Positions 2,218-50,536 of a stretch of DNA of 64,000 nucleotides are shown piece by piece. Position 1 is the first letter of the stretch; every line of letters begins with the position of its first letter. The translations under genes were made by a program, and so were the position numbers. The notes under the pieces are model-generated. The model saw only the letters and a program-made list of their open reading frames with translations, made no database searches and had not been told where the DNA came from. The DNA is taken from the NCBI GenBank assembly GCA_965203905.1, contig CBDBDQ010000005.1:4448001-4512000 (forward strand). The letters are read 5' to 3'. This DNA comes from Spirochaetia bacterium (GTDB lineage: Bacteria; Spirochaetota; Spirochaetia; SZUA-6; Bin103).

Positions 2218-2234
2218 GGCACCTCCGTTACCGC

Positions 2235-2291
2235 TTATTGTCGATTGAACAATAATACAGCCTGGGCTTGTGATTGTCAACTCGACAATAT
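2235..2291. promoter_or_regulatory. Two 21-bp NrtR-type operator palindromes
   Basis: TTATTGTCGATTGAACAATAA (2235-2255) and TGATTGTCAACTCGACAATAT (2271-2291); both have the GT-N7-AC core with AT-rich arms and lie between divergent genes. Confidence 0.75.
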
Positions 2292-2302
2292 ATAGTTCCT
2301 TC

Positions 2303-6714: not shown

Positions 6715-6856
6715 CGGCGTTCGTACCTGATCGTACGTGCGCGTTTCGAAAGGGAAAGGAGGCGCAGCCGGGGAGCAGCCCGGAGTGAGGCGTTTGTAGC
6801 TCTATGTAGCTACATCGGGCGCAGTATTTCCAGTCCCCGCCGCGCGGGGGTGGAGG

Positions 6857-10894: not shown

Positions 10895-12509
10895 GGTCGT
10901 CGACCAGCTTGGCGGGTGAGCCGCGGGGCAGCAAGCGCGCCTCGGGACGGTGCCAGGGCAGGAACCGCTCGTAGTCTTCAGGCACGCGAGCGCCGGCGAC
11001 CGCACAGGCGCTCAGGTACTCGGTCAGCCAAGTACGCGGGTTGATCTGCCATCGTTCGAGGGTGTGGAACAGGCTGAACAGCGCCGCGCTCAACTCACCG
11101 CTCCACTGCGCCCCCGAGCCGTAGTAGTTCTTGCGCCCCACCACCGGGCCGCGCAGCGCACGCTCGGCTTGATTATTGTCCAGCGGCAAGTCGGGATCCT
11201 CGACGAACCGCGTCAGCCCCTGCCAGTGGTTGCGCATGCTGCGCAGCACCTTCGCACACGCTGCCGCCAGCTTCGGCTGCTGCGCCAGTTCGCGCTCTCG
11301 TCGCTCTTCCATCGCCTGCACCACCGCCCGCAACGCCGCATCGGCCGCCGCGTACTGCGCGGGCTCACCACGCACCTCAAGACGCTCGTCGTTCAGGCGA
11401 TACAGCGTAGCGATGTCAGCCAGCCACTGCTCGGCCCACTCCTGCTGATCGTCCCGCTCATGGGCTACCGTGATGAAGTCGCGGCGCATGTGCACCCAGC
11501 AGAACGACAACTCCAGCTCGGTATCCTTGGCCAGCCGCTTGTACGAGGAGAAGCGGTCGACGCTCACCACGCCCCCCGTCACGGTCGCAAAATGCTGCTT
11601 CGGCACCCGCGCCGAACGGGTTGGATCGAGCGTGAATACCACCACCTCGGCACTCCAGAACAGCCACAGACACCAGCGCTGGCAGGTGTCCTCGCTGGCC
11701 GCCTCGAACACCTGCCAGCTGGTCTCGTCAGCATGCCAGTGCTCGCTCGTGCGGCTGCGTTCGATCAGCGCCTCGCGCAGTGGCGCGAACAACGGCGCCA
11801 GACGCCGCAGACCGTCGGTGACGGTGCCTTGGGCAAGATCCAGCCCATGCGTGCGTAGATCCGCGAGCAACCGATGCGTGGGCCGGTACAGCAGATACTT
11901 GTCGAGCAGCACCGTCACCCAGATCGAGATCCCCAGGATGCCGTTCGGGATCAGCCGTGGCGGCGCTGGCGCCGTGAGCACCGCCGCGGCCGCCGTGCAC
12001 TGGCAGCTGCGGCGGTAGCGCCGCCGCTTGATCACCCGCCGGTAGGCGCGCACCTCGACTTCCAACTGCTCGGAATCCTCGCTGCCGTGCGAATGATACT
12101 CAGCGCCGCAGGCCGCGCAGCGGCGCCGGTCCGGGGCAACGTCGTGTGCTTCAACCTGTACCGGCAGGTGTGCGTGCCGGCGCCGACCATGGCTTGGCGC
12201 CCCGGGTTGCTGACCGCGGCGCCGCGGTGGCGCGGCGGTTGCCTCAGGAGCGCCGCCACTCCTGGTTCGCTTCTCGCTGCCGCGGCGCCGTGCCCAGCGT
12301 TCCCGCAGGCGCTGGCGCAGTTCCTTGAGCTTGGCCCGTGCCGCTTGCAGTTTCTGTTTCAGCCGTTGCTCGCGCGCTACCGCCTTGCCGTGCATCCTGC
12401 GGTAATAGCGCGCCTGTCGTCGCAGCTCTACTACCTCGCACCGCAACTCGTCCATCTGGCTCTGGCACGCCGCCGTGCAGCCACTCGTTTTCCGCCAGAA
12501 CCCTCCCAC
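10884..12509 (-). CDS. tnpC: IS66-family DDE transposase (TnpC-like)
   Basis: Coiled coil, CAACG zinc finger, HADETSW, CWVHMRRDF, DNNQAERALRGPVVGRKNYYGSG. Start may be ATG 12455. Confidence 0.93.
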   Translation of the reverse strand: MGGFWRKTSGCTAACQSQMDELRCEVVELRRQARYYRRMHGKAVAREQRLKQKLQAARAKLKELRQRLRERWARRRGSEKRTRSGGAPEATAAPPRRRGQQPGAPSHGRRRHAHLPVQVEAHDVAPDRRRCAACGAEYHSHGSEDSEQLEVEVRAYRRVIKRRRYRRSCQCTAAAAVLTAPAPPRLIPNGILGISIWVTVLLDKYLLYRPTHRLLADLRTHGLDLAQGTVTDGLRRLAPLFAPLREALIERSRTSEHWHADETSWQVFEAASEDTCQRWCLWLFWSAEVVVFTLDPTRSARVPKQHFATVTGGVVSVDRFSSYKRLAKDTELELSFCWVHMRRDFITVAHERDDQQEWAEQWLADIATLYRLNDERLEVRGEPAQYAAADAALRAVVQAMEERRERELAQQPKLAAACAKVLRSMRNHWQGLTRFVEDPDLPLDNNQAERALRGPVVGRKNYYGSGAQWSGELSAALFSLFHTLERWQINPRTWLTEYLSACAVAGARVPEDYERFLPWHRPEARLLPRGSPAKLVDDRAA

Positions 12510-29561: not shown

Positions 29562-30371
29562 CCCTGGAGTAAAACGGCGGCCCGGCGGTGGCGCCGGCTA
29601 CGGTAGTCTACGGCACGCGGCAGCTCCGCATCAACCTGCGAATCCGGCGAATCCGCGGGCGCCAGACTCGGAGCGAGGCTCCTTGACGCCTCCTGACGCG
29701 CAACGGCGCGCCTTCCGAGGGCGCCGGGGAGCACCACCGTGCCCTTGCGCGTCGCCTCGGCGCAGCGGTCGAGAGCTCCTGTTGCAGCCGGGCGGCGAAC
29801 GCCGGCCTGGTCTCGCGGTTTCTCCTGAGTCGGTTCAGAGAGAGTGAGAGCGTGCCGGTAGCCGAACCGGGTGGCTCTCAGTCAGAGTGCCGGCACCACT
29901 GCGTCGGGCCAGGTAGGTCGAATCCGTCTCCGCCGTGACCTGGTAGGCAGCGGCGGACCGGTTCCCCTTTCGCTGAATCCGCTCGAACGACCAGACTACC
30001 GTAATGCCGGCGACCGCCAGCAACACTATCGCGCTCATCATCATCTGTGGTGCCTCCATTCGGGCGCGGTGCCATCACCACAAGAGGCTCACGACGGCAC
30101 TGATGCCCACGCCCATGAAAGCGAGCCCCCGATGGGCGATGTTCAGCCACCCCCCGCGGCTCGCAGCGGGTCGCCTGTCACCGCTCCCCACTTACGACCG
30201 TTTTCGGCGGATGCCCGGGTCTACTTGACTTGGGGCCCGAGGCCTGAGATTCGTGGAACCGTCAGATTCGATCGCAACTTCGTGAACTGCCCGAACCGAA
30301 TCGCGAATCTGCGTGCCGCACGTGAAGCCATCTGTACTGACGAAATGAACGGGGACCCTCCACCGGCAGCG

Positions 30372-33300
30372 GCTTCAATGAGGCCGCCGGAATTCATCGG
30401 CGAAACCTCCTCCTGGCATAGTCGCGAGCCATCGGCAAGATGTTAGAGCGCTCGTTCTTCAGCACCGCTCCGAGCGCCATCCTATCGTCCCAGGTTATTC
30501 CTCTCATGCTCCTCGGGCGGCTCCTCCGCCCTCCTGTCCTACTGCCGCGGTGGCTGACTACGTCTTCGTGTTGACTCCCTACGCGCTGCCGTCCGCTCAC
30601 GCTTGCGCTGCTCCTTCGAAGACTCATCGCCCTCAGCAGGCAGCATCCCAAGCTCCACCAACTCGGTCCTGTCACCATTGGCATAGAATATAGCCCACGC
30701 CCTCTCAAGGCGTAAGGCTCTCTCAATCTGATCCGGCTCCGTAGGGTAGATGATCTCACCCTGCGGATTCCGCGCGATCAGAACTCCAATCGGATCTGTG
30801 AACCGACCTACCGCACTCTCATCAGTGTCTGACACAAATGTCCTCCTATGCCAGTGGAATCGCCCGCCGGTCAACGGGTCTGATCCACCCGCGTCAATGA
30901 GGCCGCCGGAATTCACCGGCGGAAACACGCGATTCCGAACAGCGTACCGGACGTGATGGGACCGGGCTTGCTTCAATGAGGCCGCCGGAATTCACCGGCG
31001 GAAACGCGCCCTGCCTGACGCCATCGACCCCGCCTGGCGACTGCTGCTTCAATGAGGCCGCCGGAATTCACCGGCGGAAACCTCCCATGCCAACAGGACA
31101 TCGCGCCCGGTAGCAGCCCGGCTTCAATGAGGCCGCCGGAATTCACCGGCGGAAACGCGAGCAGCACCTACCGGAAGGAGCACAAGCTGCTGGCGCTTCA
31201 ATGAGGCCGCCGGAATTCACCGGCGGAAACATGCAGGCACAGGCCGAACTGCAGGAGCAGGGCTTGTGGGCTTCAATGAGGCCGCCGGAATTCACCGGCG
31301 GAAACGCCATGGGAAATTGGGTCTCATCCAGCTGCCGTGACTCGCTTCAATGAGGCCGCCGGAATTCACCGGCGGAAACCACCCGCGCCGCCACCCCGGC
31401 GAACGTGCCGGGGCTGAGCTTCAATGAGGCCGCCGGAATTCACCGGCGGAAACGCGCAGGTACCAGAGCTGCTGGCACCCGACCCAATCAGGCTTCAATG
31501 AGGCCGCCGGAATTCACCGGCGGAAACACCATCATCAAGCGCGTGACCCTCAGCGAGTCGCTCATGCTTCAATGAGGCCGCCGGAATTCACCGGCGGAAA
31601 CGCGGATGGCGTGCTGGCAAGCGCAGCGCTCCAGCCCGAGCTTCAATGAGGCCGCCGGAATTCACCGGCGGAAACCGAGCACGAACTCGCGGATCTCGGC
31701 ATCGGTCCAGGCGACGCTTCAATGAGGCCGCCGGAATTCACCGGCGGAAACCGGCAGGGCCGTTCGTCTGCGCACCAGTGCCATAGACTTCGCTTCAATG
31801 AGGCCGCCGGAATTCACCGGCGGAAACTCCATTGCTCCGTCGCGTTCTGTTCTCAGATTTTGGTGCTTCAATGAGGCCGCCGGAATTCACCGGCGGAAAC
31901 CGGCAGGGCCGTTCGTCTGCGCACCAGTGCCATAGACTTCGCTTCAATGAGGCCGCCGGAATTCACCGGCGGAAACGCGCGTGCCACCACGCCCAGCGGC
32001 GGGTCAATCTCTCCAGCTTCAATGAGGCCGCCGGAATTCACCGGCGGAAACGCGCGCTGGCAGGAGGGCAACTGAAACATGGGCTTATACGCTTCAATGA
32101 GGCCGCCGGAATTCACCGGCGGAAACATCCTCGGCGACGGCCGTGCTGTGGCGGCGGTTGACCCCGCTTCAATGAGGCCGCCGGAATTCACCGGCGGAAA
32201 CTTCGGCGGTCATCCCCTCGGCCAGCGTCCGGCCGAAGCGCTTCAATGAGGCCGCCGGAATTCACCGGCGGAAACGCCGACAAGAAGGCCGCCGCCGAGG
32301 CCAAAGCCGCCGCCGAGCTTCAATGAGGCCGCCGGAATTCACCGGCGGAAACGCGCGCTGGCAGGAGGGCAACTGAAACATGGGCTTATACGCTTCAATG
32401 AGGCCGCCGGAATTCACCGGCGGAAACAGTCGAGCACGTCAACCTGCAGGACGAGAGTCCGGCAGCTTCAATGAGGCCGCCGGAATTCACCAGCGGAAAC
32501 CATGGTAGTGATCCGGTTCACGGGTTACGTATTCGCGCTTCAATGAGGCCGCCGGAATTCACCGGCGGAAACCCCGAGATGGCGGAGAAGACGGCGCTGC
32601 ACCGGCTGATGCTTCAATGAGGCCGCCGGAATTCACCGGCGGAAACTTCCGGTTTGAATCATGGTTCCAGCCAACCCCGCTTCAATGAGGCCGCCGGAAT
32701 TCACCGGCGGAAACTCGTGTCAATAAGCCGAATGTTAAGAATGCTTAACGTGCTTCAATGAGGCCGCCGGAATTCACCGGCGGAAACTCCCCAGGGGATG
32801 TCCGGTACCGCGAGATGGTGCTGCACGCTTCAATGAGGCCGCCGGAATTCACCGGCGGAAACTCCCCAGGGGATGTCCGGTACCGCGAGATGGTGCTGCA
32901 CGCTTCAATGAGGCCGCCGGAATTCACCGGCGGAAACTCGCCGCTGATGTTGCCGTAGTCGTCTGTGTCGGTGCTGCTTCAATGAGGCCGCCGGAATTCA
33001 CCGGCGGAAACGAGGAACGGCGCCGGGTCCGGCCACTCGGTCAGCTCATCGCTTCAATGAGGCCGCCGGAATTCACCGGCGGAAACGCGATGGCCGCGCA
33101 AGCGGATGCAGACACCAACACCACGCTTCAATGAGGCCGCCGGAATTCACCGGCGGAAACAACGCCATCTCCTGCAATCCCATCGTCATGATCTCGGTGG
33201 CTTCAATGAGGCCGCCGGAATTCACCGGCGGAAACGCGGCTCATGCTGCCTCCCGGAGCACGGAGCGCGTCTCGCTTCAATGAGGCCGCCGGAATTCACC

Positions 33301-36300
33301 GGCGGAAACATTCGCAGCTAACAATATCATAGTCTGATTGAGCAAGACGCTTCAATGAGGCCGCCGGAATTCACCGGCGGAAACTCCAGGATCAGGAACC
33401 GCGCCCCGTAGTTGGTGGATGCGCTTCAATGAGGCCGCCGGAATTCACCGGCGGAAACACGCACCGGCCGGCGCGCTCTGGCACGGCCGCGTGATTGCTT
33501 CAATGAGGCCGCCGGAATTCACCGGCGGAAACTGCTCCTCCATGTAGTCCAGCAGGTCCAGCCCATCGCCGCTTCAATGAGGCCGCCGGAATTCACCGGC
33601 GGAAACATTCGCAGCTAACAATATCATAGTCTGATTGAGCAAGACGCTTCAATGAGGCCGCCGGAATTCACCGGCGGAAACTCCAGGATCAGGAACCGCG
33701 CCCCGTAGTTGGTGGATGCGCTTCAATGAGGCCGCCGGAATTCACCGGCGGAAACGTGGCGAAGCCGTCGGACTGTAGCGGGCTGATGCCGTCGCTTCAA
33801 TGAGGCCGCCGGAATTCACCGGCGGAAACGCCAGCGGCACATAATGAGTACCATGTTTGACAAGCTTCAATGAGGCCGCCGGAATTCACCGGCGGAAACC
33901 TGCCGAGGGTGTCGACGTGCTGTGGGTGGAGCAAGCCGCTTCAATGAGGCCGCCGGAATTCACCGGCGGAAACTCCCCAGGGGATGTCCGGTACCGCGAG
34001 ATGGTGCTGCACGCTTCAATGAGGCCGCCGGAATTCACCGGCGGAAACCGCAGCGTACTTCTGGTCCAGGGTTTGCTCCATATCGATGCTTCAATGAGGC
34101 CGCCGGAATTCACCGGCGGAAACGAGTATCTGGTCGGGCTCGGCCAGCCGCTCATCGAGCAGCTTCAATGAGGCCGCCGGAATTCACCGGCGGAAACCTG
34201 CTCGGAAACGCCTACTGGCCATTCACCATCAAGAAGCTTCAATGAGGCCGCCGGAATTCACCGGCGGAAACGCTGCCGCTGTCCATGTCCGCCGGGTCCA
34301 GGTCGCCCAGGCTTCAATGAGGCCGCCGGAATTCACCGGCGGAAACGTGCTCGGGGGAGCCCACGAAATCACCGCCGAACTCCATGGCGCTTCAATGAGG
34401 CCGCCGGAATTCACCGGCGGAAACGTGCTCGGGGGAGCCCACGAAATCACCGCCGAACTCCATGGCGCTTCAATGAGGCCGCCGGAATTCACCGGCGGAA
34501 ACTTGTCACGTCCTCGTCGTCCCAATCCTCCACCACCACGCTTCAATGAGGCCGCCGGAATTCACCGGCGGAAACCCGGTGACAGAGTGGCTGATACCCG
34601 TCCCATTATACACAGGCTTCAATGAGGCCGCCGGAATTCACCGGCGGAAACAGGCGGGCGGGGCCCCGTGGCACGAGTCGCCAGACGGGCTTCAATGAGG
34701 CCGCCGGAATTCACCGGCGGAAACCGGCGGCATGAGGGAGAACTGTGGCATTCACTGACTTGGGGCTTCAATGAGGCCGCCGGAATTCACCGGCGGAAAC
34801 TCGATACGGCAATCCTGGTCTCGCCACTTGTCGATTCGCTTCAATGAGGCCGCCGGAATTCACCGGCGGAAACCCAATACCACGCCGAGCGCTTCGGGTG
34901 CCAGCGCATCGCGCTTCAATGAGGCCGCCGGAATTCACCGGCGGAAACGCCAGATCCTCCAGCGCGCGAGCCGACGGCGCCGCCAGACGCTTCAATGAGG
35001 CCGCCGGAATTCACCGGCGGAAACATCCGAACCGATCCCCGGCCGCGAGGCCGAAATGGCCGAGCTTCAATGAGGCCGCCGGAATTCACCGGCGGAAACT
35101 GACGGGAACGGCGGCGGCGCGTCATCGGCCACGATGCTTCAATGAGGCCGCCGGAATTCACCGGCGGAAACTCGGGCGGCCCGGGCGCCGGCGCATCGGT
35201 CAGGTTGTCCTCGCTTCAATGAGGCCGCCGGAATTCACCGGCGGAAACTAGCTATATGCGATTAGTAGGCTATACCCCGTCATTTCGCTTCAATGAGGCC
35301 GCCGGAATTCACCGGCGGAAACAAGCCCGTGATCTCGCCGCCGTCCGGCAGTACGACAATGCTTCAATGAGGCCGCCGGAATTCACCGGCGGAAACGCCC
35401 GCCTTGCTCCGGCGGGTATTGAACGGGTGGAAGTGGCTTCAATGAGGCCGCCGGAATTCACCGGCGGAAACCTCGCAGCGCCACGGGCTATACTCGCGGA
35501 GAATCGCGTGCTTCAATGAGGCCGCCGGAATTCACCGGCGGAAACGCGGTTCGTACGTGTCGCCCGCGACCGCGCCCGGCCGCGCGCTTCAATGAGGCCG
35601 CCGGAATTCACCGGCGGAAACCGCCCGGATCATCGGCGACATCGTGGAGGAATGGATCACGCTTCAATGAGGCCGCCGGAATTCACCGGCGGAAACGGCC
35701 GCCGAGGACGTGTCCGAGGCCGGGCTGTACTTCTTGCTTCAATGAGGCCGCCGGAATTCACCGGCGGAAACCACGCCCAGGAGCCGCAGAGGAATCCTCC
35801 GATGGCCTCGCTTCAATGAGGCCGCCGGAATTCACCGGCGGAAACGTGATCCGCAGTTGCACCTGCCCGGTCAACGGGCTGTCCACCTCATCGCTTCAAT
35901 GAGGCCGCCGGAATTCACCGGCGGAAACTCCCGCCCGTAAGCCCAATCGGGCACCGGCGCATGCCGTGCTTCAATGAGGCCGCCGGAATTCACCGGCGGA
36001 AACGGCCGCCGAGGACGTGTCCGAGGCCGGGCTGTACTTCTTGCTTCAATGAGGCCGCCGGAATTCACCGGCGGAAACCACGCCCAGGAGCCGCAGAGGA
36101 ATCCTCCGATGGCCTCGCTTCAATGAGGCCGCCGGAATTCACCGGCGGAAACGTCAGGAAGGCGATGGCGTGCTCGTGGTCGGAGCGGGCGCTTCAATGA
36201 GGCCGCCGGAATTCACCGGCGGAAACCTCGCATTAGCAACCTACAAAGCGAAAAAGGCACCTTCCGCTTCAATGAGGCCGCCGGAATTCACCGGCGGAAA

Positions 36301-37338
36301 CGTTGAACAGTAGAAGGATCGAGCCGCACCAGATCGCGCTTCAATGAGGCCGCCGGAATTCACCGGCGGAAACGTGTCGATACCGCCGTATGGTGCTGTC
36401 GGTCTCTTTGGTGCTTCAATGAGGCCGCCGGAATTCACCGGCGGAAACTACGGCATAGTGAATGACGTTGTAGTCTACATGGCAACGCTTCAATGAGGCC
36501 GCCGGAATTCACCGGCGGAAACCCCTGGTCTCCGGCGCCGTGGATGTCGCCCTGCGCGCCGCTTCAATGAGGCCGCCGGAATTCACCGGCGGAAACTCCG
36601 CCTAAGAATGGCGCTATGATGCTGTTTTTCAACGGGCTTCAATGAGGCCGCCGGAATTCACCGGCGGAAACACAGCAGGGTCAAGCGGTTTTCGCAAAGT
36701 TTTTCAAGGCTTCAATGAGGCCGCCGGAATTCACCGGCGGAAACGAGTTAAACTCGCAGCCCTTGGTGACCAAGCCCCATCTTGCTTCAATGAGGCCGCC
36801 GGAATTCACCGGCGGAAACGAGGATTGAGAGTTAGAGAGTTCGTCAAGTCAAAGTGGCGCTTCAATGAGGCCGCCGGAATTCACCGGCGGAAACATCGCC
36901 GTCATCGGGACGCAGTTCGCCGATTCGCTGGCGCTTCAATGAGGCCGCCGGAATTCACCGGCGGAAACCCGGCACAACGACGTCTACGTTCCCCTCGGCC
37001 TCGTGGCTTCAATGAGGCCGCCGGAATTCACCGGCGGAAACCTCGTCCACCTGGTCGTCACTGAGCTTCCGGCGCGTGGTGCTTCAATGAGGCCGCCGGA
37101 ATTCACCGGCGGAAACCCGCAACCAGGCGTTGATGCCGCGCATCGAGTAGACGAGGCTTCAATGAGGCCGCCGGAATTCACCGGCGGAAACATCGTTGTT
37201 GGCGGAATCCAGCTCGGGCATGGAACCGCTTCAATGAGGCCGCCGGAATTCACCGGCGGAAACGCACCGCAGCAGTCGTCGCAGACGCCGCGAAAGTTCA
37301 ACGCTTCAATGAGGCCGCCGGAATTCACCGGCGGAAAC
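30372..37338 (-). CRISPR. Type I-G CRISPR array, about 88 repeats of 36 nt
   Basis: Repeat GTTTCCGCCGGTGAATTCCGGCGGCCTCATTGAAGC on the minus strand (7-bp stem CCGCCGG/CCGGCGG). About 87 regularly spaced copies from 30891 to 37338 with spacers of about 32-47 nt, plus a degenerate copy at 30372-30406. Leader is on the cas2 side. Confidence 0.98.
30539..30835 (-). CDS. Hypothetical 98-aa protein inside the oversized terminal spacer
   Basis: AGGAGGA Shine-Dalgarno 5 nt before GTG 30835; MSDTDESAVGRFTDPIGVLIARNPQGEIIYPTEP...; basic C-terminal tail. Confidence 0.55.
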   Translation of the reverse strand: MSDTDESAVGRFTDPIGVLIARNPQGEIIYPTEPDQIERALRLERAWAIFYANGDRTELVELGMLPAEGDESSKEQRKRERTAARRESTRRRSQPPRQ

Positions 37339-37544
37339 GCACCCGCTCCAACTTGCGACGAGTGGGAGAATTACTCGCAGGGTTGCGAGTGGTGCGTGAA
37401 AGGTGCGATCGAGCAGAGATCACAGGCAGCATCAGGTACCGATTCTACACCGTAAGATTATGTATGTCAAAGACCTGGCGACTTGCGAGCCCTCCCTGAG
37501 GTACGCGCGGCACCGGAGCGCTCGGTCGGCAGCGGCGGAGCCGG
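37339..37544 (-). promoter_or_regulatory. CRISPR leader
   Basis: Non-coding gap between cas2 and the first repeat, with AT-rich core AAGATTATGTATGTCAAAG and CTCGCA-GGGT-TGCGAG inverted repeat at 37374-37389. Confidence 0.75.
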
Positions 37545-37835
37545 CTACACAATGAGCGGTTCGCGCTGCATCGGGTGGAAGGTCTTCCCCAGGCTCACGA
37601 CACGCGGTTCGACGTTGTCGGCGACGCCCAGATCGACCAGTACCACGTGATCCTCGTTATGATCGATTGTTTTGTCGAGGCGTGCAACCAGTTCGGCCTG
37701 GCGGCGCTTGTTCATGCGGCACTGGAAGACCGAGAGCTGTACCCAGGCTCCGTATCCGTTCATCAGCTTGTAGACCTTGCGCCACCGCTTCGGGTCGGCA
37801 ATGTCGTAGGCCACGATGTACAGGTGCTCGTCCAT
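37545..37835 (-). CDS. cas2: CRISPR-associated Cas2
   Basis: YIVAYDIADPKRWRKVYKLMNGYGAWVQLSVFQC. Confidence 0.97.
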   Translation of the reverse strand: MDEHLYIVAYDIADPKRWRKVYKLMNGYGAWVQLSVFQCRMNKRRQAELVARLDKTIDHNEDHVVLVDLGVADNVEPRVVSLGKTFHPMQREPLIV

Positions 37836-37838
37836 GGT

Positions 37839-39644
37839 TCAGCGCGTCGTGAAGTTGGGGTAGGCCGGAATCTCCCCGAGCAGGAAGCGCCCCAGGAGCC
37901 GGGCCTGCATCTCCATCAGGCGGCGGTAGCTGACCCGATAGCCGAACAGCGGATGGACGATTTCGTGGCTCAGGCGACGCTCGAAGGCGGCGATGAACCG
38001 GCGCCGACCCTCTGGAGTAAGGGCAACGCTGCCGGCGGCTGATCTGAAGTCGATCGGCCGTATCTCGCCGTTGTTGATGAGTTGCAGGACGACCGAGTCG
38101 GCGATCAAGGGCCGGAACGGCTCCATCAGGTCGAGAGCAAGGGCGGGACGGCCGTAGCGGGGTTGGTGATACAGGCCGCGGAAGGCATCGAAGCCGACGG
38201 CGGTCAGGGTCACGGTCCAGGCGCGGGTCAACAGCGAGTAGGCAAACGAGAGCAACGCGTTGACCGGATCGGTCGGCGGCCGCCGATTGCGCTTCTCGAA
38301 GTCGAACGCCAACGTCCGCGCCGGCTCGCTCTCGCTGAACATTGCCGGGAACGCTCGAAAGTAGCGCGCCGCGGCCGTTCCTTCCACGCCGAGCAGCACG
38401 GCCAGCGACCGCACCCGTGCCACCCGCCGGCTGTCCTCCTTGAGCTCGATCAGCACATCGCGATTATCTTCCGACCGCTTCCAGTTCCTCCTGAGCAGGG
38501 TGCGGCAATTCGCGATCTTGGCGCTCACCAGCCCCTTGGCGAAGCGCAGACAGATGGTCGGGTCGAAGCTGGCCCGATACTGAGCCGTTCTGAGCTCCAC
38601 GTTCTTGTGGCCATTCCCGATGGTGTGGCCATAGAACCATCCGCCGTGACTGTGCCAGGTCACCGGAATACCACGCCACATCAGTTCGTGCAGGCACGGT
38701 GAGGTGACGTAGATGCTGCCCATGAGCACCACCTGCGAGGTTTCCGCAAGGCGGGCGGTGGCTACCTTCTCGTCGTCGACGGTAACAACCAGCGTCTCAC
38801 CCGACTTGGCGACCTTGGCGCCGCGGGCCTGCACGTAGAGCGGCAGCGCGTCCGTGGCGGGCACGGCGATCGGACGGGGCGCGGCGCCGGGGCGGGAAAG
38901 CAACGCGAGATGATTTACCTCGTCGGGAAGACAGATGCTCACCAGGGAACAGCGCGGACACTTGGGGCTGTCTTCGAGCGGCGGCGGGATGGTGCCGCCG
39001 TGTGCCACGTTCCGCAAGCCCTCGACGGCCCGTTCCGTGGCGGCGATCAACTCGTCGTCGAACACGACCCGTACGCGCTCGCGGCCGGCCACGAAGTAGA
39101 GCACCCCTTCGTCGCACCGATAGCCGTGCTCGCGCAGGATCAGTCCCTGTACGCAGAGTTGCACTCGCTCGGGGTCGTAGGCACCGCGTTTCACGTGCGG
39201 ACGCTTGCCACGTTTGTAGTCGATCGGAACGACGCGCCCATGCTCGGACTCGATCAGGTCCATGCGTGCTATCAACCCCAGTCGCTCGGATGACAGCGTG
39301 ACCGACCGGGCATGCAGCTTCTCCGCGACCTCCTGCGGCGCCGGCATCGCGCCGCCGTCCCGATTGACGCGCCGGTGCGCATGCCGTCCCTCTACGGTGT
39401 CGGCGGAGTCAGCCCACTCGCCCTGAACCCACTCCAGGTAGGCCAGGCGCGGACAGTACTGATACTCGTTCACCATCCGGGCCGGCACCAGCGGACCTTC
39501 GACCGGTGCTCCGGCAGGAGGGAACACGAACTCGCCCTGCTGCGGTGCGGTTCTACGGCTCGCTTCCTCGGTGTCACCGGTCTGAGGAACCAGTGCCGGC
39601 GGCGGGAAGTTCGCCGCCGCGTTCTGCCTACCATCTGTCTTCAC
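37839..39644 (-). CDS. cas1: Cas4-Cas1 fusion
   Basis: Cas4 part: YCPRLAY, IDYKRG, QLCVQ, CPRCSLVSICLPDE. Cas1 part: LGVEGTAAARYF, RNRRPPTDPVNALLSFAY, LALDLMEPFRPLIAD. The fusion is typical of I-G. Confidence 0.96.
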   Translation of the reverse strand: MKTDGRQNAAANFPPPALVPQTGDTEEASRRTAPQQGEFVFPPAGAPVEGPLVPARMVNEYQYCPRLAYLEWVQGEWADSADTVEGRHAHRRVNRDGGAMPAPQEVAEKLHARSVTLSSERLGLIARMDLIESEHGRVVPIDYKRGKRPHVKRGAYDPERVQLCVQGLILREHGYRCDEGVLYFVAGRERVRVVFDDELIAATERAVEGLRNVAHGGTIPPPLEDSPKCPRCSLVSICLPDEVNHLALLSRPGAAPRPIAVPATDALPLYVQARGAKVAKSGETLVVTVDDEKVATARLAETSQVVLMGSIYVTSPCLHELMWRGIPVTWHSHGGWFYGHTIGNGHKNVELRTAQYRASFDPTICLRFAKGLVSAKIANCRTLLRRNWKRSEDNRDVLIELKEDSRRVARVRSLAVLLGVEGTAAARYFRAFPAMFSESEPARTLAFDFEKRNRRPPTDPVNALLSFAYSLLTRAWTVTLTAVGFDAFRGLYHQPRYGRPALALDLMEPFRPLIADSVVLQLINNGEIRPIDFRSAAGSVALTPEGRRRFIAAFERRLSHEIVHPLFGYRVSYRRLMEMQARLLGRFLLGEIPAYPNFTTR

Positions 39645-39949: not shown

Positions 39950-40831
39950 CTAGCGGCTCTTCCTGAACAGCCCGAACGCGAAGTTGGGTGGCGGCTCCGG
40001 AATGTCGTTGCGGTCCTGCAGGTAGCGCTGCGTCTGCTCCGTCGGCGAGACATGATCCATCGCGGTGAAGCCGGACCTCTGCATCTCGGCGTCGATCTCC
40101 TCGGGGCTGTACTCCGACAGCATCGGCTCGCCGCGGCGTTCCACGAATCGGTCCATCTTCTCGACCAGCGCCAGCCCGGCAGCGGGCACCAGGCTTCGGG
40201 GGTACCGGTAGTCGAGCACTACCTGGCTTCCGGGTGCGGCGACGGCGTCGATCTGGTCGATGGTGTCGCTGACGGCCTCCCTGGTCAGGTAGCACGTCAC
40301 CCCCAGCCACGCAAAGAAGGCCGGTGCCTCGGGGTCGAAGCCGGCTCCGATCAATGCAGCGTCAAGCCGGTCCGTCTCGAAGTCCACCGGCACCAACGCG
40401 AGATTCGAGGGCAGCGGGCCAATGCGCGCGAGCTGGTGGCGCTTCATCTCCTGCGACGCCGGATGGTCGACTTCGTAGATGCGCAGCCGATCCGCCAGAC
40501 TCGGGTGGCGCACCGCGAACGTGTCGAGCCCGGCTCCGAGGATCACGTACTGCTGCACGCCGGATGAAATCGCTTCCTGCAGCCGGTCCTCGGCGTACCG
40601 GATGCGCAGGATGATCACGGTGTGGGTGGGCTTGAGCGTTCGCAGCAGGACATCGACCACGAGGCGGTTCAGCACCCAGTTGTTGGCGACCAGCCGCCAG
40701 AACGGTGTCACCATGGCGCCTGCGTATTGGTCGGAGAAGATCGGATTCGGATTCCACCTGAGGTGGCTGGCGCGTACGGCGGCCACCAGTATCGCGGTGG
40801 TGCTGGCCTTGCGAGGGCGGGTGTCGGACAT
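39950..40831 (-). CDS. SAM-dependent methyltransferase, leucine carboxyl methyltransferase family
   Basis: QYVILGAGLDTFA, YEVDHP, VPVDFE, WLGVTCYL. Confidence 0.88.
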   Translation of the reverse strand: MSDTRPRKASTTAILVAAVRASHLRWNPNPIFSDQYAGAMVTPFWRLVANNWVLNRLVVDVLLRTLKPTHTVIILRIRYAEDRLQEAISSGVQQYVILGAGLDTFAVRHPSLADRLRIYEVDHPASQEMKRHQLARIGPLPSNLALVPVDFETDRLDAALIGAGFDPEAPAFFAWLGVTCYLTREAVSDTIDQIDAVAAPGSQVVLDYRYPRSLVPAAGLALVEKMDRFVERRGEPMLSEYSPEEIDAEMQRSGFTAMDHVSPTEQTQRYLQDRNDIPEPPPNFAFGLFRKSR

Positions 40832-40855
40832 GACGCGTCAGTATGTACGCGTCAT
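40830..40855. promoter_or_regulatory. Palindromic operator-like site over the methyltransferase start
   Basis: ATGACGCGT-N8-ACGCGTCAT perfect 9-bp inverted repeat. Confidence 0.4.
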
Positions 40856-40964
40856 CCTCGACCTTGTCGAGCACCCGTGCCGCCAACGCCCTTGGCGCCT
40901 TCGGCCCCGACGCAGGTAGGTTGCCCCTGTGTTGCTATCGCGCCGACCTGCAACTCCTCTATCG

Positions 40965-42215
40965 TCAGCCGTCACGCTGGGAGCCGCAGAACAGGCGCCG
41001 CACCGTCTGGTTGGGAATAACCATGCGGGGAATGTATTCACGCTCTGGTTGGATGCTCAGCAGGCCGAAGTAGTGCAGCAGCGACGGGAGGTTCTCCGGC
41101 TGGGCCAGTTCCTCCAGCAGAAAGCCGTCACGGACCGGGCTTTCCACGGCGCTTTCGCAGGCCAGTTGGCGCAGCATGTCGAAGGTCTCGTTGAGCTTCC
41201 GGTTGCCGGTCAGCAGGTGGCGCAGCTTGTCGTAGTGGACGCGTACACTGCCATCGATCAGGTCGTCCGGCGGTCCACCGTTCGAGATCGATTCCATCAG
41301 GTAGCGGAGCACCGATTTCGTGTGGTAGAGGTCGTTCCGGGCGCGCTCGCCGAATCGGTAGCCGCCGTACCACTCACCCATGACGGCCATCGCCTCGTTC
41401 ACGTCCTGGTCGAACACGCCGAGCTGGCGGTAGCGCTCCAGCAGGTCGCATACCTCCGCTTCCGTGAAACCCAGCATCTCGTTGAACTCCGGACGCAGGC
41501 TGATGTCCATGCCGATGTTGAAGCCGCCGGTCACGCCGGCCATGCTGATCGGCGTCACCCCGGCGACAAAAATGCGCTCGATGCCGCCGTGTCCGGTGCC
41601 GGCCTTGAGCGTGGCGAAGAAGCTGCGGTAGAAGCCGGCAAAGTCCGGGGCCGGCCACCGGCTCGCACCGGTGCCGCGATCGGCCAGAACGGAATCGGCG
41701 AGGTAGTCGTAGCCGTCGATCAGTACGTACAGCGGAACGCCGTGCGTTGACCCGCGCAGGAACAACTCGTTCAGCTTCGATTCGATGCTGGACGCCGCCA
41801 GGATGCGCTGCCTCACCGCGTCGGGGAACAGGTCACGGTTGCACTCCAACGCGTGGCGGAGGCTTCGGGAGCAATGCTGATCGAAGGGTTCCCGCGAGGT
41901 CTCCGCGGCGTCGCCAAGCGCGGAGAAGTCGAAGTGCAGGATGACGTAGCGGTGGCGCTCCGGCGTCGGTCGCCGTGCGATGTCGGTGCCGGCGAACAAT
42001 GCCTCGAACCGGCCGGCGGCGTTGCGATCGTAGTAGTTCCGCAGCAGCGAAACCCAGCACGACTTCCCGAACCCGCGGGGGCGCATCAGAAAGGCGTAGT
42101 GTACCTCTTCCAGCTCGTGCAGAAAGCGGGTCTTGTCGACGTAGAGCATCCGTTCGCGGCGCATCGCCTCGAAGTCGGTGCGGTCGTAAGGAATCTGGGG
42201 ATACGCGGTGCTCAT
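40965..42215 (-). CDS. AAA-ATPase-like protein, apparently lacking the C-terminal PD-(D/E)XK nuclease domain
   Basis: IPY...DFE...YVDKT, RPRGFGKS, LIDGYD, GVTPI, GFTEAEV, WYGGYRF, IPNQTVR followed by an early stop; GGAGGTG RBS. Confidence 0.8.
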   Translation of the reverse strand: MSTAYPQIPYDRTDFEAMRRERMLYVDKTRFLHELEEVHYAFLMRPRGFGKSCWVSLLRNYYDRNAAGRFEALFAGTDIARRPTPERHRYVILHFDFSALGDAAETSREPFDQHCSRSLRHALECNRDLFPDAVRQRILAASSIESKLNELFLRGSTHGVPLYVLIDGYDYLADSVLADRGTGASRWPAPDFAGFYRSFFATLKAGTGHGGIERIFVAGVTPISMAGVTGGFNIGMDISLRPEFNEMLGFTEAEVCDLLERYRQLGVFDQDVNEAMAVMGEWYGGYRFGERARNDLYHTKSVLRYLMESISNGGPPDDLIDGSVRVHYDKLRHLLTGNRKLNETFDMLRQLACESAVESPVRDGFLLEELAQPENLPSLLHYFGLLSIQPEREYIPRMVIPNQTVRRLFCGSQRDG

Positions 42216-42264
42216 CTCGACACCTCCGTCACCTCCGTGGTGAAAATCGGCGCAAATTGGCGCG

Positions 42265-42440
42265 GCCGACATCCGTTCCTTCCATCGGTTCGCGCTTCAT
42301 TCTGTTCTTCAGCCAGGCGGCGACCTCGCTCCGGCTGTTCAGGGCTTCCTCGATCTCGCGTTCAACCGGACTCAACGCCGCCAACCGCGTAGCGCGCTCC
42401 TCGGTGTGGGCGACCGAGCGATTCGAGAGCCATCTGCCGT
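42265..42440 (-). pseudogene. Possible C-terminal remnant of a type III RAMP gene (Cmr6-like)
   Basis: EERATRLAALSPVEREIEEAL..EVAAWLKNRMKRE, then RWKE after a frameshift; resembles Cmr6 tails from memory only. Confidence 0.3.
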
Positions 42441-42990: not shown

Positions 42991-43080
42991 TTTGCCTGCG
43001 CGTTACCGGCGGATTTGACGCGCAAGGACGAAGCGCTGGATGCCGGACAGGTCACGGGCGAGGTAGAGGGCCTTGCTCAC
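42985..43080 (-). pseudogene. Cas10 (Csm1-like) N-terminal remnant
   Basis: GTG overlaps the csb2 stop (GTGA); MSKALYLARDLSGIQRFV, then with indels LRVKSAGNAQ-KRLR, echoing the Cas10 DLSGIQxF...KxLRARS motif. Confidence 0.5.
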
Positions 43081-44813
43081 GGGGCGCCGGTCCTTGGGGC
43101 GATCGAATCTGTGGCGGCGAACAACCCGAGGCCGAAGTGGCAGCCGTAGCCGAGGGCGACCGGGCCGGAGACCGACTCCGGGAAGTGCACGCGCAGCAGC
43201 GCGCCGTGCGGGTCGGAGGCGCGTTCGCGGCCGCGGGAGCGGAAGCGGTGATACTGGAGCGACCGGCGGCGGTTGCCGTGGACCTCCACGAAGGGGAGCA
43301 GGTCGACCTGAATGCGGCCGGTCAGCGATGGGCCCAGGATGCCTCGACGCTGGATGAGCCGGCGCACTTCGCGGGGGTAGCCGGTAGCCTCCGCCAGGGG
43401 GCCTTCGATCATTCGACCGGCTTCCAGCGTGCGGCGGGCAGTGCGTCCCTCGCCGGTTCGCTTCAGGTGAGCAGTCGGCAGAAAGGGGGTGACGCTGTCC
43501 CAAACCCGTGCATGCCGGAATAGAGCGGAGAATTGCGCGAACTCCTCACACGTGCCGAAGCCTTCCAGTGCCAGCCGCCACTCGCGGCGGCCGCCTTCTT
43601 CGGTAGCGCTGCCCGCCTGGGAGCCGCGTGCCGGTAGCCACAACCGCGTCAGCCGATCGAGGGCGGCCCGCACCCGGGTGTCGAATCCGCTAGCAGCGTA
43701 CACGCACACGTGGTCGATCAGACCGTCCCCGTCGGCGTCCTCCGGAAGCCAGAAGGCATGCGAATGGTGGGCGTCGCGCAACGGAGTGTTACCCTCGCCA
43801 CGGCCGGAGATCTCGGGCGGTGCCAGCGCTCGGGAGCGCCCGGTGCGCGGATCCGATTCCCAGCCGAACTGTGACAGAGCCGCGCGGCGCATCAGCTCGC
43901 CGATCCTTACCGCGTCTTCGATGCGCGGTTGCGGGCGTCCGGCAAGCAGATAACGGGCGACCGTGTAGCGGGAAGGGTCCGGTATCCGTGCACCGCGCGG
44001 CACCACGCGGCGCGGGTGGGGTGAGAGCGGCGTGCGCTCGTAGTGGATCTCGTGCGCCGCCGGAGGCCGGTTCCAGCCGTGTTTCTGGAAATCGGCGGTG
44101 TCCACGGCTACCGCGTCGATAAGGCGGTTCGGCAGCGTGCGGCCGAAGCGTCTCTGCCGCTTCCTGCCCAGCGCCAGCGAGGTAGGCGGTCGCTTGCCGG
44201 CTGCGTGCGCTGCCGCCCGCTCCTCAGCGTCCGCTTGTGCCAGGAGGCGCTCGCGCCGCGCCGCATAATCGCTGGCGGTGAGCGGTCCCGGTACCGAAAC
44301 TAACTCTCCGAAGCCGTTCGCAGTGCCCTCAACGGGCAGACAATTGGCCCCCGATCGATCCCACTCCGCCGTCGCGCTGCACTGCACCCAGCTCTCGGCG
44401 CGGCCAAGGTACCCGATGCCGTCGGCAAGATCGGTAACCAAGTCGAACAGCCGGGGTTCCAGCAGGAGGTCCGGCCACGCGACGACGATCGATGCGCCCT
44501 CCGGCAGGTGAGCGAAGGCATCGAACACCAGGGTCTTCCTGGCCGGCGCGGGCATGTAGTGCCGAGTGTGCGCGTGTACGGCGCCCTCGGGCAAGTGGTA
44601 AATCGGTGTCGCCTCCGCCAGCGCATCGATCAGGTTCGCGGCCTCTTCCTTCGACCAGTGCGCGCAGGATCCCTTGCGCCAGTAGGTAGCGATCAGCGCT
44701 CGCAGGATTCGCCACGGCTCCGGCGGCCACGCCACGTCGGCCTCGTTGACATGGCGGCCCCACGGGGTCGCGTGGTAGCGGTGCGCCGGAAAGCTGAACG
44801 AGAGCGCGAGCAT
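43077..44813 (-). CDS. csb2: Type I-G Csb2 (Cas5/Cas6 fusion)
   Basis: RYHATPWGRHVNEADVAWPPEPWRILRALIA, YLGRAESW, WDSVTPF, C-terminal GPVALGYGCHFGLGLF loop. Confidence 0.93.
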   Translation of the reverse strand: MLALSFSFPAHRYHATPWGRHVNEADVAWPPEPWRILRALIATYWRKGSCAHWSKEEAANLIDALAEATPIYHLPEGAVHAHTRHYMPAPARKTLVFDAFAHLPEGASIVVAWPDLLLEPRLFDLVTDLADGIGYLGRAESWVQCSATAEWDRSGANCLPVEGTANGFGELVSVPGPLTASDYAARRERLLAQADAEERAAAHAAGKRPPTSLALGRKRQRRFGRTLPNRLIDAVAVDTADFQKHGWNRPPAAHEIHYERTPLSPHPRRVVPRGARIPDPSRYTVARYLLAGRPQPRIEDAVRIGELMRRAALSQFGWESDPRTGRSRALAPPEISGRGEGNTPLRDAHHSHAFWLPEDADGDGLIDHVCVYAASGFDTRVRAALDRLTRLWLPARGSQAGSATEEGGRREWRLALEGFGTCEEFAQFSALFRHARVWDSVTPFLPTAHLKRTGEGRTARRTLEAGRMIEGPLAEATGYPREVRRLIQRRGILGPSLTGRIQVDLLPFVEVHGNRRRSLQYHRFRSRGRERASDPHGALLRVHFPESVSGPVALGYGCHFGLGLFAATDSIAPRTGAP

Positions 44814-44825
44814 GTCGGCGAGCGA

Positions 44826-48079
<3,254 letters not shown>

Positions 48080-48090
<11 letters not shown>

Positions 48091-50536
48091 GCGTCACCTC
48101 CACTTCGGTAGCCGATGCCCGCCAGTCGGCGATGCGCAGGAGGGCTTCCAGCCACGCCAGTCGAAACGGTCCGTAGCGTTCCAGCAGACCGCGCGTACGT
48201 TCGGTCCAACTGGCCTCCGAACGGGCGTCCTCGCCCAGTTCCATCACTGACAGGCTCAGCTCACCCCCGGGCCACCGCTCGCCGGTTCCCAGTTCGACGT
48301 CCGGAAGCTGGTCGCCTTCCCACACGCCGCGCGCGAACCGCCGACCGTCGGGGCGGCCTTCAGCAGTGGTCCCCGGCTTCTCCGCGGGAAGCGCGCGCAG
48401 ATTCATGCGCACCTTGCCATGATGCGCGGCAATGAGGTACGCAACCAGGTCGGCGGCGCGCGACCACTCGGCATGGGCAAGCCATGCGAGGGCCGAGGCC
48501 AGCTCATGGCGGAAGTAGGGGCGACCCTTGCTTCGGTCATAGTGATGCGCTTTGGCAAGCACTGGCCCCGAGGCACTCGCGCCAAGTCGCTCTTGGAATG
48601 TGGCGTGGGCCTTCCCGACATCATGCCAGCGCGCCGCCTGGATTACCTCGCGTTTGCCAGTGACGGCCCCAAGAGTCTCGCAGAGCCGGTCGGCCTCCGA
48701 CACGACATGCTGGAGATGAGCGGTGAGAGGCACCACTGCCCGCTGCTGGCTCTCAGGATCCGCGTCCAGCGACTCAGCCACCCGCTGATCAGGATCCGGG
48801 GGATCGATCGGCATGACCGGGGCGGTCACGGTGGGGTCGAATCCGGTGCACGGTGAATAGCCTCCCGCGGTGACGTGCAGCATCAGCACGAGTCCGGGCC
48901 ACGGAGTGGCGTCAAGAGGCACCCAGGCCGTGCCGCGTTCGCCACCACCGCGCCGTCGTATCTGGGGATCGGTCTGATAGGCGCGCAACCGCTGTTTGGT
49001 GCGTACCGCTTTGAGCCAATCGCGCGCCTGTCCGATCGGCACTGCACACAGTTCCTCTCGCCGCGGCGGAGGCTCGTCGCGGGGACCTTCGGAACGGTCG
49101 AAGTCGCGCCAGAACACGCGGATGTCGGTGTCTTCCGCGTCGCGCACGTAGGGCGACACATCGACGTCGAAGCCGGTTAGATCTGGGTCGGTGTCATACA
49201 GATCGATCAGGTCCTTGCGGCGAATCACCCAGCGGTGCGCGCAATCCTCGGCAGCGGGAGGGGCCAGATTCGACGGTCTCGCGTCGTTCAAACTGGCGAT
49301 GCGCGAGCGTCCGATGGCCAGTTCGCGCGGCTCGTACGGGGCCGCCAGGGCGTCGTCAGCAGTGGTAAGGTCGATCCAGTGAATGGTCGCACCGCCGCTT
49401 TCGTTCAGTTCTCCGTACCGGTTCACCCGACCGAATCGCTGCACCATCGAGGAAGCCGGCGCCAACTCGGTGATGAGCGTAGCTGCGGACAGGTCGACTC
49501 CCGCTTCAATGGCTTGCGTGGTGACCACGATCAGGTCGCGCGCCGTGCGTGGCTGCGGCAGCTTCTCCATCTGCACGTGGCGGTCGCCGGGGCGAAACCG
49601 GGAGTGGATCAGGGCGAGGCGGTCGGGCGGCACACCCTGCTTGATGAGGGCCGCATGCACCCGTTGAGCACGGGCAACCGTGTTCAGGATTACCAGTGTC
49701 GTCCGCCCCGGTTGATGATGCGCGCGACCTGCTGCGGCCAACTCACGTACGTAAGCTGCGATGTCGGCCTTCCTGGCGCTCACCGGCCGGACCGGCGACG
49801 GCGCGATCCGTTTCGGCGCGTCGAGCAAGGTGCGGACGGCCGGAGACTGCTGGTCTCCTGGAAACTCGTCGGGAACGCGCCAGACGCGGGGATTGGCCGG
49901 TGCGTCCACCGTGTGCAGCCACCGAGGGTGCAGAGTGGCCGATACCCAGAGGCTGGCGGCGTCCGCCTCGGTCCCCAGTGTTCGCCGCAGCCCTTCGAGT
50001 TGCGTGGAGGTAGCCAGGCCAGAGCTCATGAGCTGGATCTCGTCGAACACCCACTGGACGTCGTTGTGAAGGAGAGCGAAATCGACCGGCCAGCGAAAGC
50101 GGCTCATGGCGTATCCGCGCATCAGTGCGCGGCTGATCAGCATGTCCTGGGTCCCGACCAGGACTGCCGGGCGCTCCGGCCACTCGTACCACCTTGGCTC
50201 GTCCTCCCCACCCATCAGGACGTGGACGTCGCGGTCGGCGTCGGGCAAACGTACCTGCCACTCCTGAACGGATGGAAGCCGTCGAAGCCACGCGGTCACG
50301 TTGCGCGCGGTCTGGTCGGCAAGCGTGCGCATCGGCAGGCAGTAAACCAGCCGGAGCGGAGCGGTTTCGGCTGAGATGACGCGCTTCCAGAGCCAAGCGA
50401 GCACTACCGCAGCGGTCTTGCCGAGGCCGGTAGGAGCTATGAGCGCATCCGGCCAGACGCGGTCGGCGAGCGCTTCCTGGTAAGCGAACGGCTTGGCTCC
50501 CCCTAACGCTGCGGAGAAGAAGTCGCGGTACGTCAT
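48080..50536 (-). CDS. cas3: Type I-G Cas3 (helicase with C-terminal HD nuclease)
   Basis: APTGLGKT, DEIQ, SAT, QRFGRVNR, then WHDVGK, RHELAS, HHG, IADW. Confidence 0.95.

Follow-up and report, generated by a model that had tools for sequence, protein, structure and literature searches.

How does a complete protein-coding gene come to lie in a spacer slot of a clustered regularly interspaced short palindromic repeat (CRISPR) array, and does it serve any purpose there? This question is raised by a stretch of 64,000 nucleotides (nt) from a Spirochaetia bacterium (GTDB lineage Spirochaetota; Spirochaetia; SZUA-6; Bin103; GenBank assembly GCA_965203905.1, contig CBDBDQ010000005.1, positions 4,448,001 to 4,512,000 of the forward strand), hereafter the window, in which the last, and oldest, slot of a type I-G array is filled by 484 bp of DNA carrying open reading frames (ORFs). 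The reading that we favour, and hold with slightly better than even confidence, is that this insert, or "pseudo-spacer", is a strain-specific fragment of a foreign operon, captured at the borders of two repeats and carried since then as a passenger.

The array (30372-37338, minus strand) comprises 88 copies of a 36-nt repeat, of which 85 are exact; one repeat (32465-32500) carries a single substitution, and the last two repeats are mutated. Among the 87 intervals between repeats, 86 are 32-47 nt long (58 of them 38 or 39 nt), and a single one, located between the last two repeats, measures 484 nt and lies far outside the range of ordinary spacers here. The repeat contains a hairpin, after which comes an 8-nt handle that ends in a ATTGAAGC-like sequence; this type of handle, a promoter-like site and cas2 at the high-coordinate end, and the mutated repeats at the far end together place the leader at high coordinates and the trailer at 30372. 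The substitution in the penultimate repeat occurs at position 3 on the plus strand, i.e., position 6 of the 8-nt 5′ handle of the CRISPR RNA (crRNA), and this repeat is predicted to fold like the consensus (-14.8 kcal/mol). The terminal repeat, with one substitution and one deleted G, folds at -9.2 kcal/mol versus -14.8 kcal/mol for the consensus, and keeps a weaker hairpin with a 6-bp stem. Scanning with Rfam gave sub-threshold CRISPR-repeat matches only, with the terminal repeat matched to CRISPR-DR16. We found no decayed repeats within the insert or in the 1.4 kb past the terminal repeat (the best ungapped match was 20/36, and shuffled sequences reach 22), and no other copy of the repeat elsewhere in the genome.

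The insert abuts both flanking repeats directly and, read in the direction of the array, contains 55 non-coding bases, then ORF1 with its own ribosome-binding site, and then ORF2, which runs into the terminal repeat. Such a layout is what one would see in a piece cut arbitrarily from a larger gene cluster, as opposed to a self-contained unit, and this fragment character follows from ORF2, which breaks off at the terminal repeat and is without a homologue. Specifically, the last three codons and the TGA stop of ORF2 are contributed by the terminal repeat, the GAGGAG motif is poorly spaced at only 1 nt before the ATG, and searches for homologues of near or greater length returned none, with tblastn against phages giving only rows at E = 9; ORF2 may thus be the 5′ part of a gene that has been cut, or else not be a gene. 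The C-to-T change in the terminal repeat also turns a GTG of the repeat into an ATG, which overlaps the ORF2 stop codon (ATGA), lies 8 nt after AGGAGGAGG, and opens a 58-aa ORF into the trailer (30221-30397, minus strand); with no relative in 30 genomes, this trailer ORF is probably spurious. The G+C hairpin between ORF1 and ORF2 was not reported as a terminator by terminator prediction.

A preliminary description of this locus, made from the sequence alone, had reported the two mutated repeats with just these changes, the 484 bp between them as opposed to about 38 bp elsewhere, the AGGAGGA motif followed by a GTG and a 98-aa ORF, and the GGGCGG/CCGCCC hairpin, and all of these are borne out, the hairpin by its predicted fold. 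Its second ORF, introduced by GAGGAG and ATG, is likewise present, with the reservations about spacing and about its end in the terminal repeat given above. The further statement that the insert is less GC-rich than host genes holds mildly for total GC (59.5% versus a genome mean of 66.3%, with a standard deviation of 5.7; 12% of genome windows are as low) and clearly for GC at third codon positions (GC3), which is 60.6% in ORF1 compared with a range of 76-92% over seven host genes; for the cas genes among these the range is 76-82%, and for two adjoining housekeeping genes 89-92%.

The preliminary description had named as a refutation that the segment be ordinary chromosomal DNA, present without repeats in relatives; the 484-bp DNA was found in none of 60 relatives. 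Five of the ten congeners have an array with an identical repeat, and none of the five carries the insert DNA or the ORF1 protein. No second copy of the 484 bp exists in the 8-Mb genome. Judged by the low GC3 of ORF1, the single copy in the genome and the absence from these relatives, the insert looks foreign, and it probably stems from a mobile element. The preliminary description had suggested a blastn/tblastn search with 30407-30890 against phage, plasmid, and metagenome sets; in phage and plasmid collections, neither the 484 bp (by blastn) nor ORF1 (by tblastn) identified a donor.

We compared the arrays of four of the five identical-repeat congeners (386 spacers), and found no spacers common to different genomes, so these arrays offer no common history. 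The insert matched none of 472 spacers (86 from its own array and the 386 from the four congeners) over more than 12 nt. Protospacers for the array's spacers were not found in phage or plasmid collections, and the repeat had no exact match in viral contigs. The array's own spacers gave partial matches of only 19-24 nt to their own genome, and the relatives' spacers gave one 22-nt match to it.

A word-indexed search identified two 84-aa metagenomic proteins that are 73-74% identical to residues 1-66 of ORF1, and the first residues of both align with its GTG start; ORF1 is a real and complete gene. When 1.84 billion cluster representatives were searched exhaustively with HMMER, 16 proteins scored E <= 0.001, and of these the best two, at 2.4e-25 and 7.8e-23, were the ones to pass E <= 1e-10; most of the 16 are 60-90 residues long. 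We aligned ORF1 with the second close homologue and 14 of the 16 matches, leaving out one tandem-duplicated protein and one 486-aa repetitive protein, and five columns (G26, W47, D55, L59, and G63) are invariant across these 16 sequences. ORF1 belongs to a rare, unnamed family whose domain comprises about 60 aa, and this family is without a model in Pfam, NCBIfam, PHROGs, and PADLOC. The core of ORF1 has an isoelectric point (pI) of 4.3 and its 32-residue tail, which the homologues do not have, a pI of 11.5. The AlphaFold model of ORF1 has a mean predicted local distance difference test (pLDDT) score of 71.5, with blocks covering residues 21-60 at about 86-89, and predicts one short strand, a long helix, and a short helix, followed by the long helical basic tail. 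This fold had no match in PDB or BFVD by Foldseek (E > 0.9), the best VIA-align Z score was 3.0, the ORF1 profile found nothing below E 0.28 among PDB sequences, and the ESM Atlas gave no usable match. Structural similarity to antitoxins (Z 2.1-2.5) does not rise above noise, and neither ORF1 nor ORF2 matched any family in Pfam, NCBIfam, or PADLOC; an acidic core and basic tail in ORF1 together with a basic ORF2 would be compatible with a type II toxin-antitoxin pair, and are not evidence for one.

The ENA/Logan contigs that encode the closest homologues of ORF1 range in length from 1 kb to 6.3 Mb, and searches with family alignments or single members against genome, viral, and metagenome contigs identified no source element. 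Among cultured or binned genomes the family is scarce: the ORF1 profile was found in none of 400 sampled genomes of the phylum, in none of the ten congeners, in 3 of 91 genomes of the order (one of these marginal), and in 2 of 13 genomes of the sister genus, where it is present as the C-terminal domain of another protein. In the one clear genomic case, the sister-genus genome G018, an Exo_endo_phos (PF03372) protein of 298 aa ends in the domain, which makes up its last 60 residues (E 9e-17), and in G020 (L028, 9697-11120) a decayed copy of the domain lies beside a homologous Exo_endo_phos gene that is without it. No Exo_endo_phos partner was detected in the present genome using the G018 protein as a query. 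This association, a weak one, is the only functional hint for the domain family.

Table. Location of the features described in the text; all positions refer to the window, except for the last row.
Feature	Position	Strand	Remarks
Terminal repeat, 35 nt	30372-30406	minus	One substitution and one deleted G
484-bp insert (pseudo-spacer)	30407-30890	minus	Fills last (oldest) spacer slot
ORF2, 37 aa	30394-30507	minus	Basic (pI 11.7), ATG at 30507; crosses insert/repeat junction
G+C hairpin, 6 bp	30515-30531	minus	Between ORF1 and ORF2; -12.7 kcal/mol; no T-run after
ORF1, 98 aa	30539-30835	minus	GTG start at 30835; acidic conserved core 1-66, basic tail 67-98
Shine-Dalgarno-like AGGAGGA	30841-30847	minus	5 nt before ORF1 start
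Penultimate repeat	30891-30926	minus	One substitution, hairpin intact
Rest of array	30927-37338	minus	86 repeats and 86 ordinary spacers (32-47 nt)
Leader promoter-like site	37442-37470	minus	TTGACA-17-TAGAAT, 11/12; about 100 nt upstream of first repeat
cas2	37548-37835	minus	TIGR01573, E 6.9e-12
cas4/cas1 fusion (Cas4g/Cas1g)	37839-39644	minus	NF049935, E 1.5e-247
Leucine-carboxyl-type S-adenosylmethionine (SAM) methyltransferase gene	39950-40831	minus	PF04072
"Predicted AAA-ATPase" gene	40965-42272	minus	PF09820
csb2 (Cas5-Cas6 fusion; type I-G nuclease for precursor crRNA)	43077-44813	minus	TIGR02165, E 6.3e-47
cas7g/csb1	44826-45779	minus	
cas8g/csx17	45769-48090	minus	
cas3g	48080-50536	minus	
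Exo_endo_phos fusion gene of G018	L027 (G018:C1:5271000-5290999) 10091-10987	minus	Adjoins O6-methylguanine methyltransferase gene (ogt)

If the insert is a captured operon fragment, then a random piece of an operon would have entered the last slot through an event that used the repeat borders. Our first choice for the agent, a tentative one, is the system's own Cas4/Cas1-Cas2 machinery, which would have integrated a long fragment left untrimmed; the borders flush with the repeats, the fragment character of the insert, and the lack of a mobility signature all speak for it. Our second choice, which we consider doubtful, is that a mobile element recombined doubly with two resident spacers. After an integration by Cas4/Cas1-Cas2, later deletions between repeats could have shifted the slot to the end of the array. 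Such exchanges have left traces here, in that nine spacers in the region 31752-36116 of the array occur more than once, one of them three times, which makes ten identical pairs (by start position, for example, 31752 = 31901, 32052 = 32353, and 32788 = 32863 = 33974) including duplicated two-unit blocks (33310/33385 = 33607/33682 and 35697/35772 = 36004/36079), from which it follows that repeat-repeat recombination does occur inside the array. As one of its two explanations, the preliminary description had proposed that Cas1-Cas2 aberrantly captured part of an operon belonging to a mobile element. Our analysis upholds the foreign fragment; the agency of Cas1-Cas2 goes beyond what we found, and no source element was identified. 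As to its present role, we think that the insert is now a passenger that plays no part in immunity, and one may speculate that its first 38 nt or so could still guide against the donor.

Several points weigh against capture at the repeat borders. No source element was found, and some 10-40 nt at either end of the insert may be left over from an ordinary spacer that an unrelated insertion split. At 484 nt, the substrate would have been about 12 times the length that the system normally integrates, and we know of no experiment in which Cas4/Cas1-Cas2 integrated DNA of such length. The slot is located at the trailer, whereas integration normally happens at the leader, and the mutations differ between the two flanking repeats. 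One C-to-T change is common to the terminal repeats of this genome and of the congener G007, a coincidence for which we roughly estimate a chance of about 0.05; if ancestral, this change rules out that the insert was integrated directly into the terminal repeat, since the copy so formed would have inherited it, and the terminal repeat would be older than the insert, with the slot having reached the end of the array through later deletions. For the variant with double recombination, no TTN is present at any of the 11 offsets 34-44 nt from the terminal repeat, at which a resident last spacer would have its protospacer adjacent motif (PAM), TTN being the PAM reported for other I-G systems (PMC9638904). 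Finally, the repeats on either side of ORF1 are the most mutated of the array and yet ORF1 itself is intact, as would fit a kept gene no less than a passenger.

Of the alternatives, the one that survives best is an insertion unrelated to CRISPR, whereby about 440-450 bp (a non-autonomous element, end-joining filler, or the product of other illegitimate recombination) entered the last ordinary spacer, and the outer bases are what remains of that spacer. We consider this unlikely, and it has precedents among the congeners, whose arrays do take ordinary insertions. In G007 (L017 = G007:C1:3694000-3702100, 6323-7797), a degenerate terminal repeat lies 1,441 bp off the array, the interval encodes an IS256-family transposase and has 26-nt terminal inverted repeats, and the 27 and 19 nt that flank it together make one ordinary spacer, the last of this array. 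In G009 (L023 = G009:C1:1972400-1986500, 1623-3036), a 1,414-bp gap in an array of 169 repeats holds a 387-codon ORF, which we take, on the strength of a motif, to encode an IS4/IS5-like transposase. We read both of these oversized slots as ordinary insertion sequence (IS) insertions. Two further gaps of about 110 nt in the G009 array probably hide decayed repeats. In the G007 terminal repeat, paired G-to-A and C-to-T changes on the two arms keep the hairpin, and just past this repeat lies a type III repeat-associated mysterious protein (RAMP) gene (TIGR03986-like, below cut-off).

In the 484-bp insert, the sole terminal symmetry is a perfect 9-nt inverted repeat (30413-30421 and 30846-30854), whose arms lie 6 and 36 nt from the borders; 6 and 36 add up to 42 nt, a spacer length that occurs in this array, as expected if a single spacer had been split. 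However, chance would by our own estimate give about 0.8 such 9-nt pairs in the region, one arm overlaps the ribosome-binding region of ORF1 and the other lies inside ORF2, and the single copy in the genome would be unusual for a mobile mini-element. There is also no transposase ORF in the insert and no target-site duplication beside the 9-nt inverted repeat, and we rejected an insertion sequence or a miniature inverted-repeat transposable element (MITE) on these grounds together with the lack of further copies. The preliminary description had seen no terminal inverted repeat, target-site duplication, or transposase; this stands for the latter two, and for the first needs only the addition of this 9-nt pair, at about chance level.

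A second alternative, also put forward in the preliminary description, is that the insert is a functional module that has been kept, with the array acting as an operon for ORF1 and Csb2 freeing a translatable RNA whose protein product is useful, e.g., in regulation, addiction, or counter-defence. Mechanistically this would be possible. In Thioalkalivibrio sulfidiphilus, Csb2 cleaves the repeat 4 nt 3′ of its hairpin; the product keeps an 8-nt handle at the 5′ end, and the enzyme remains on the hairpin at the 3′ end (PMC9638904). Cuts by Csb2 in the penultimate repeat, which has the full hairpin that the enzyme needs, and in the terminal repeat, with its 6-bp stem, would release an RNA of about 519 nt (30898-30380), in which the ribosome-binding site of ORF1 would lie about 50 nt from the 5′ end. 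ORF1 is complete, its ribosome-binding site is strong, and it has stayed intact next to such mutated repeats; in addition, erm(N) is expressed from within the Campylobacter CRISPR locus (PMC11823653). Against this, we found no promoter-like site in or just upstream of the insert. In the leader, a promoter-like motif was found once versus 0.2 expected in shuffles, and without a promoter of its own the insert would be transcribable only as the far tail of the precursor crRNA, some 6.6 kb from this leader promoter. ORF2 appears cut off, ORF1 matches no defence, phage, or curated family and gave no fold match, and neither the DNA nor the protein is present in any identical-repeat congener, or in any of the ten congeners overall. 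The proposal of the preliminary description therefore finds no comparative support, and we hold a kept module to be rather improbable. In the bolder form of this idea, the array doubles as an expression site: its last "spacer" would be a domesticated gene cassette transcribed from the leader, Csb2 would cut a translatable RNA of about 519 nt out of the transcript, and the protein, of a domain family that is elsewhere fused to a DNase-I-like (Exo_endo_phos) enzyme, would act on the CRISPR system or on invading DNA. We view this form as quite improbable.

It would be very improbable, in our view, for the 484 bp to be the scar of two arrays, i.e., DNA that remained between the main array and a second array shrunk to a single repeat. 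Arrays in this clade do rearrange, as seen in the ten identical spacer pairs and two-unit blocks of the present array, and the terminal repeat is a variant partly common to G007. However, no resemblance to the main array's leader was found in the DNA adjoining the terminal repeat (a local alignment of the insert scored 23, against a mean of 18 and a maximum of 27 for shuffled sequences, so that no leader-like sequence was found in it), the composition of the insert is foreign, and the repeat has no other copy in the genome. An assembly artefact by chimeric joining, for which the repetitive nature of arrays would speak, is hardly credible, since the region lies inside a 7.8-Mb contig of a five-contig assembly and both flanking repeats are unique variants that anchor the junctions, whereas a false join would be expected at identical repeats.

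The array belongs to a complete CRISPR-Cas locus on the minus strand of this 8-Mb genome (66% G+C), in which the array adjoins cas2. Six cas genes (cas3g, cas8g/csx17, cas7g/csb1, csb2, the cas4-cas1 fusion, and cas2) score above curated NCBIfam cut-offs, which identifies the locus as type I-G at the level of its gene content. Two non-cas genes (39950-42272, minus strand) interrupt the I-G operon between csb2 and cas4/cas1, encoding the AAA-ATPase and the SAM methyltransferase listed in the Table, and neither matches the PADLOC defence models. A second CRISPR array is present at about 25,700-27,000 on contig C4 of G000 (57 kb, outside the window); its repeat is 34 nt long, the first 17 nt being common with the 36-nt type I-G repeat, and at its low-coordinate end the array decays progressively into degenerate repeats.

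Gene-bearing pseudo-spacers bear on the strictness with which the CRISPR integrase measures length in vivo, and on whether arrays can serve as landing pads through which foreign genes enter chromosomes. The present slot may possibly record, in nature, an integration by Cas4/Cas1-Cas2 of DNA about 12 times the length that the ruler of the integrase allows, a suggestion that we make tentatively and that is compatible with the expression-site reading; a donor that matched as far as both repeats and had a TTN flank would show directly, from a natural case, that Cas4/Cas1-Cas2 can integrate long fragments. The association with Exo_endo_phos is also a first, and weak, functional hint for an unnamed domain family of about 60 residues.

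Comparison with known systems sets this locus among several partial likenesses. CreTA and other stand-alone modules with crRNA-like RNAs carry a spacer-sized pseudo-spacer that pairs with a promoter, and like these modules the present locus has a degenerate repeat apart from the array beside a small gene-like element. Unlike them, the interval here is 484 nt, and neither the 40-nt ends of the insert nor the trailer has a partial match of more than 16 nt elsewhere in the genome, for which reasons we rejected a module of this kind. As with the IS insertions in G007 and G009, a slot at or near the trailer has been expanded (to 0.5-1.4 kb), with the same C-to-T change in the terminal repeat of G007; unlike the 484-bp insert, those in G007 and G009 contain a transposase, and that in G007 also has 26-nt terminal inverted repeats. 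The type I-G system of T. sulfidiphilus resembles the present one in its 36-nt repeat, its hairpin with 8-nt handle, and the presence of all cas genes of the subtype, and its normal product is a 72-nt crRNA, where the slot studied here would give an RNA of about 519 nt (PMC9638904).

Two published cases are closer, and these were the only ones to surface in a search of full-text literature for gene-bearing pseudo-spacers, with supplements and subscription journals outside its coverage. The first is erm(N), located between CRISPR repeats in Campylobacter coli and C. jejuni, which is likewise a complete protein-coding gene between repeats beside ordinary spacers; it lies in a type II-C array, confers a selected macrolide resistance, and recurs in many isolates, whereas the insert described here occurs in one genome only (PMC11823653). 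The second is SiL-E1, in CRISPR_2 of Sulfolobus islandicus LAL14/1, which comprises about 2 kb with five ORFs between identical repeats, and for which faulty protospacer processing or spacer-plasmid recombination was proposed (Jaubert et al. 2013, PMC3718332). Both SiL-E1 and the present insert are oversized, apparently foreign DNA with whole ORFs exactly in the spacer slot of a regular array, bounded directly by two of its repeats, strain-specific and without a transposase. SiL-E1 is mid-array, between identical repeats, and has a donor (pING1-like plasmids) known to both borders; by contrast, the insert studied here is 484 bp with one complete gene, in the last slot, between mutated repeats of a bacterial type I-G array, and with no donor found. 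The 484-bp slot is a rare oddity of an already known kind, in one genome only, and what it adds to SiL-E1 and erm(N) is a bacterial type I-G case with a complete gene and clean borders.

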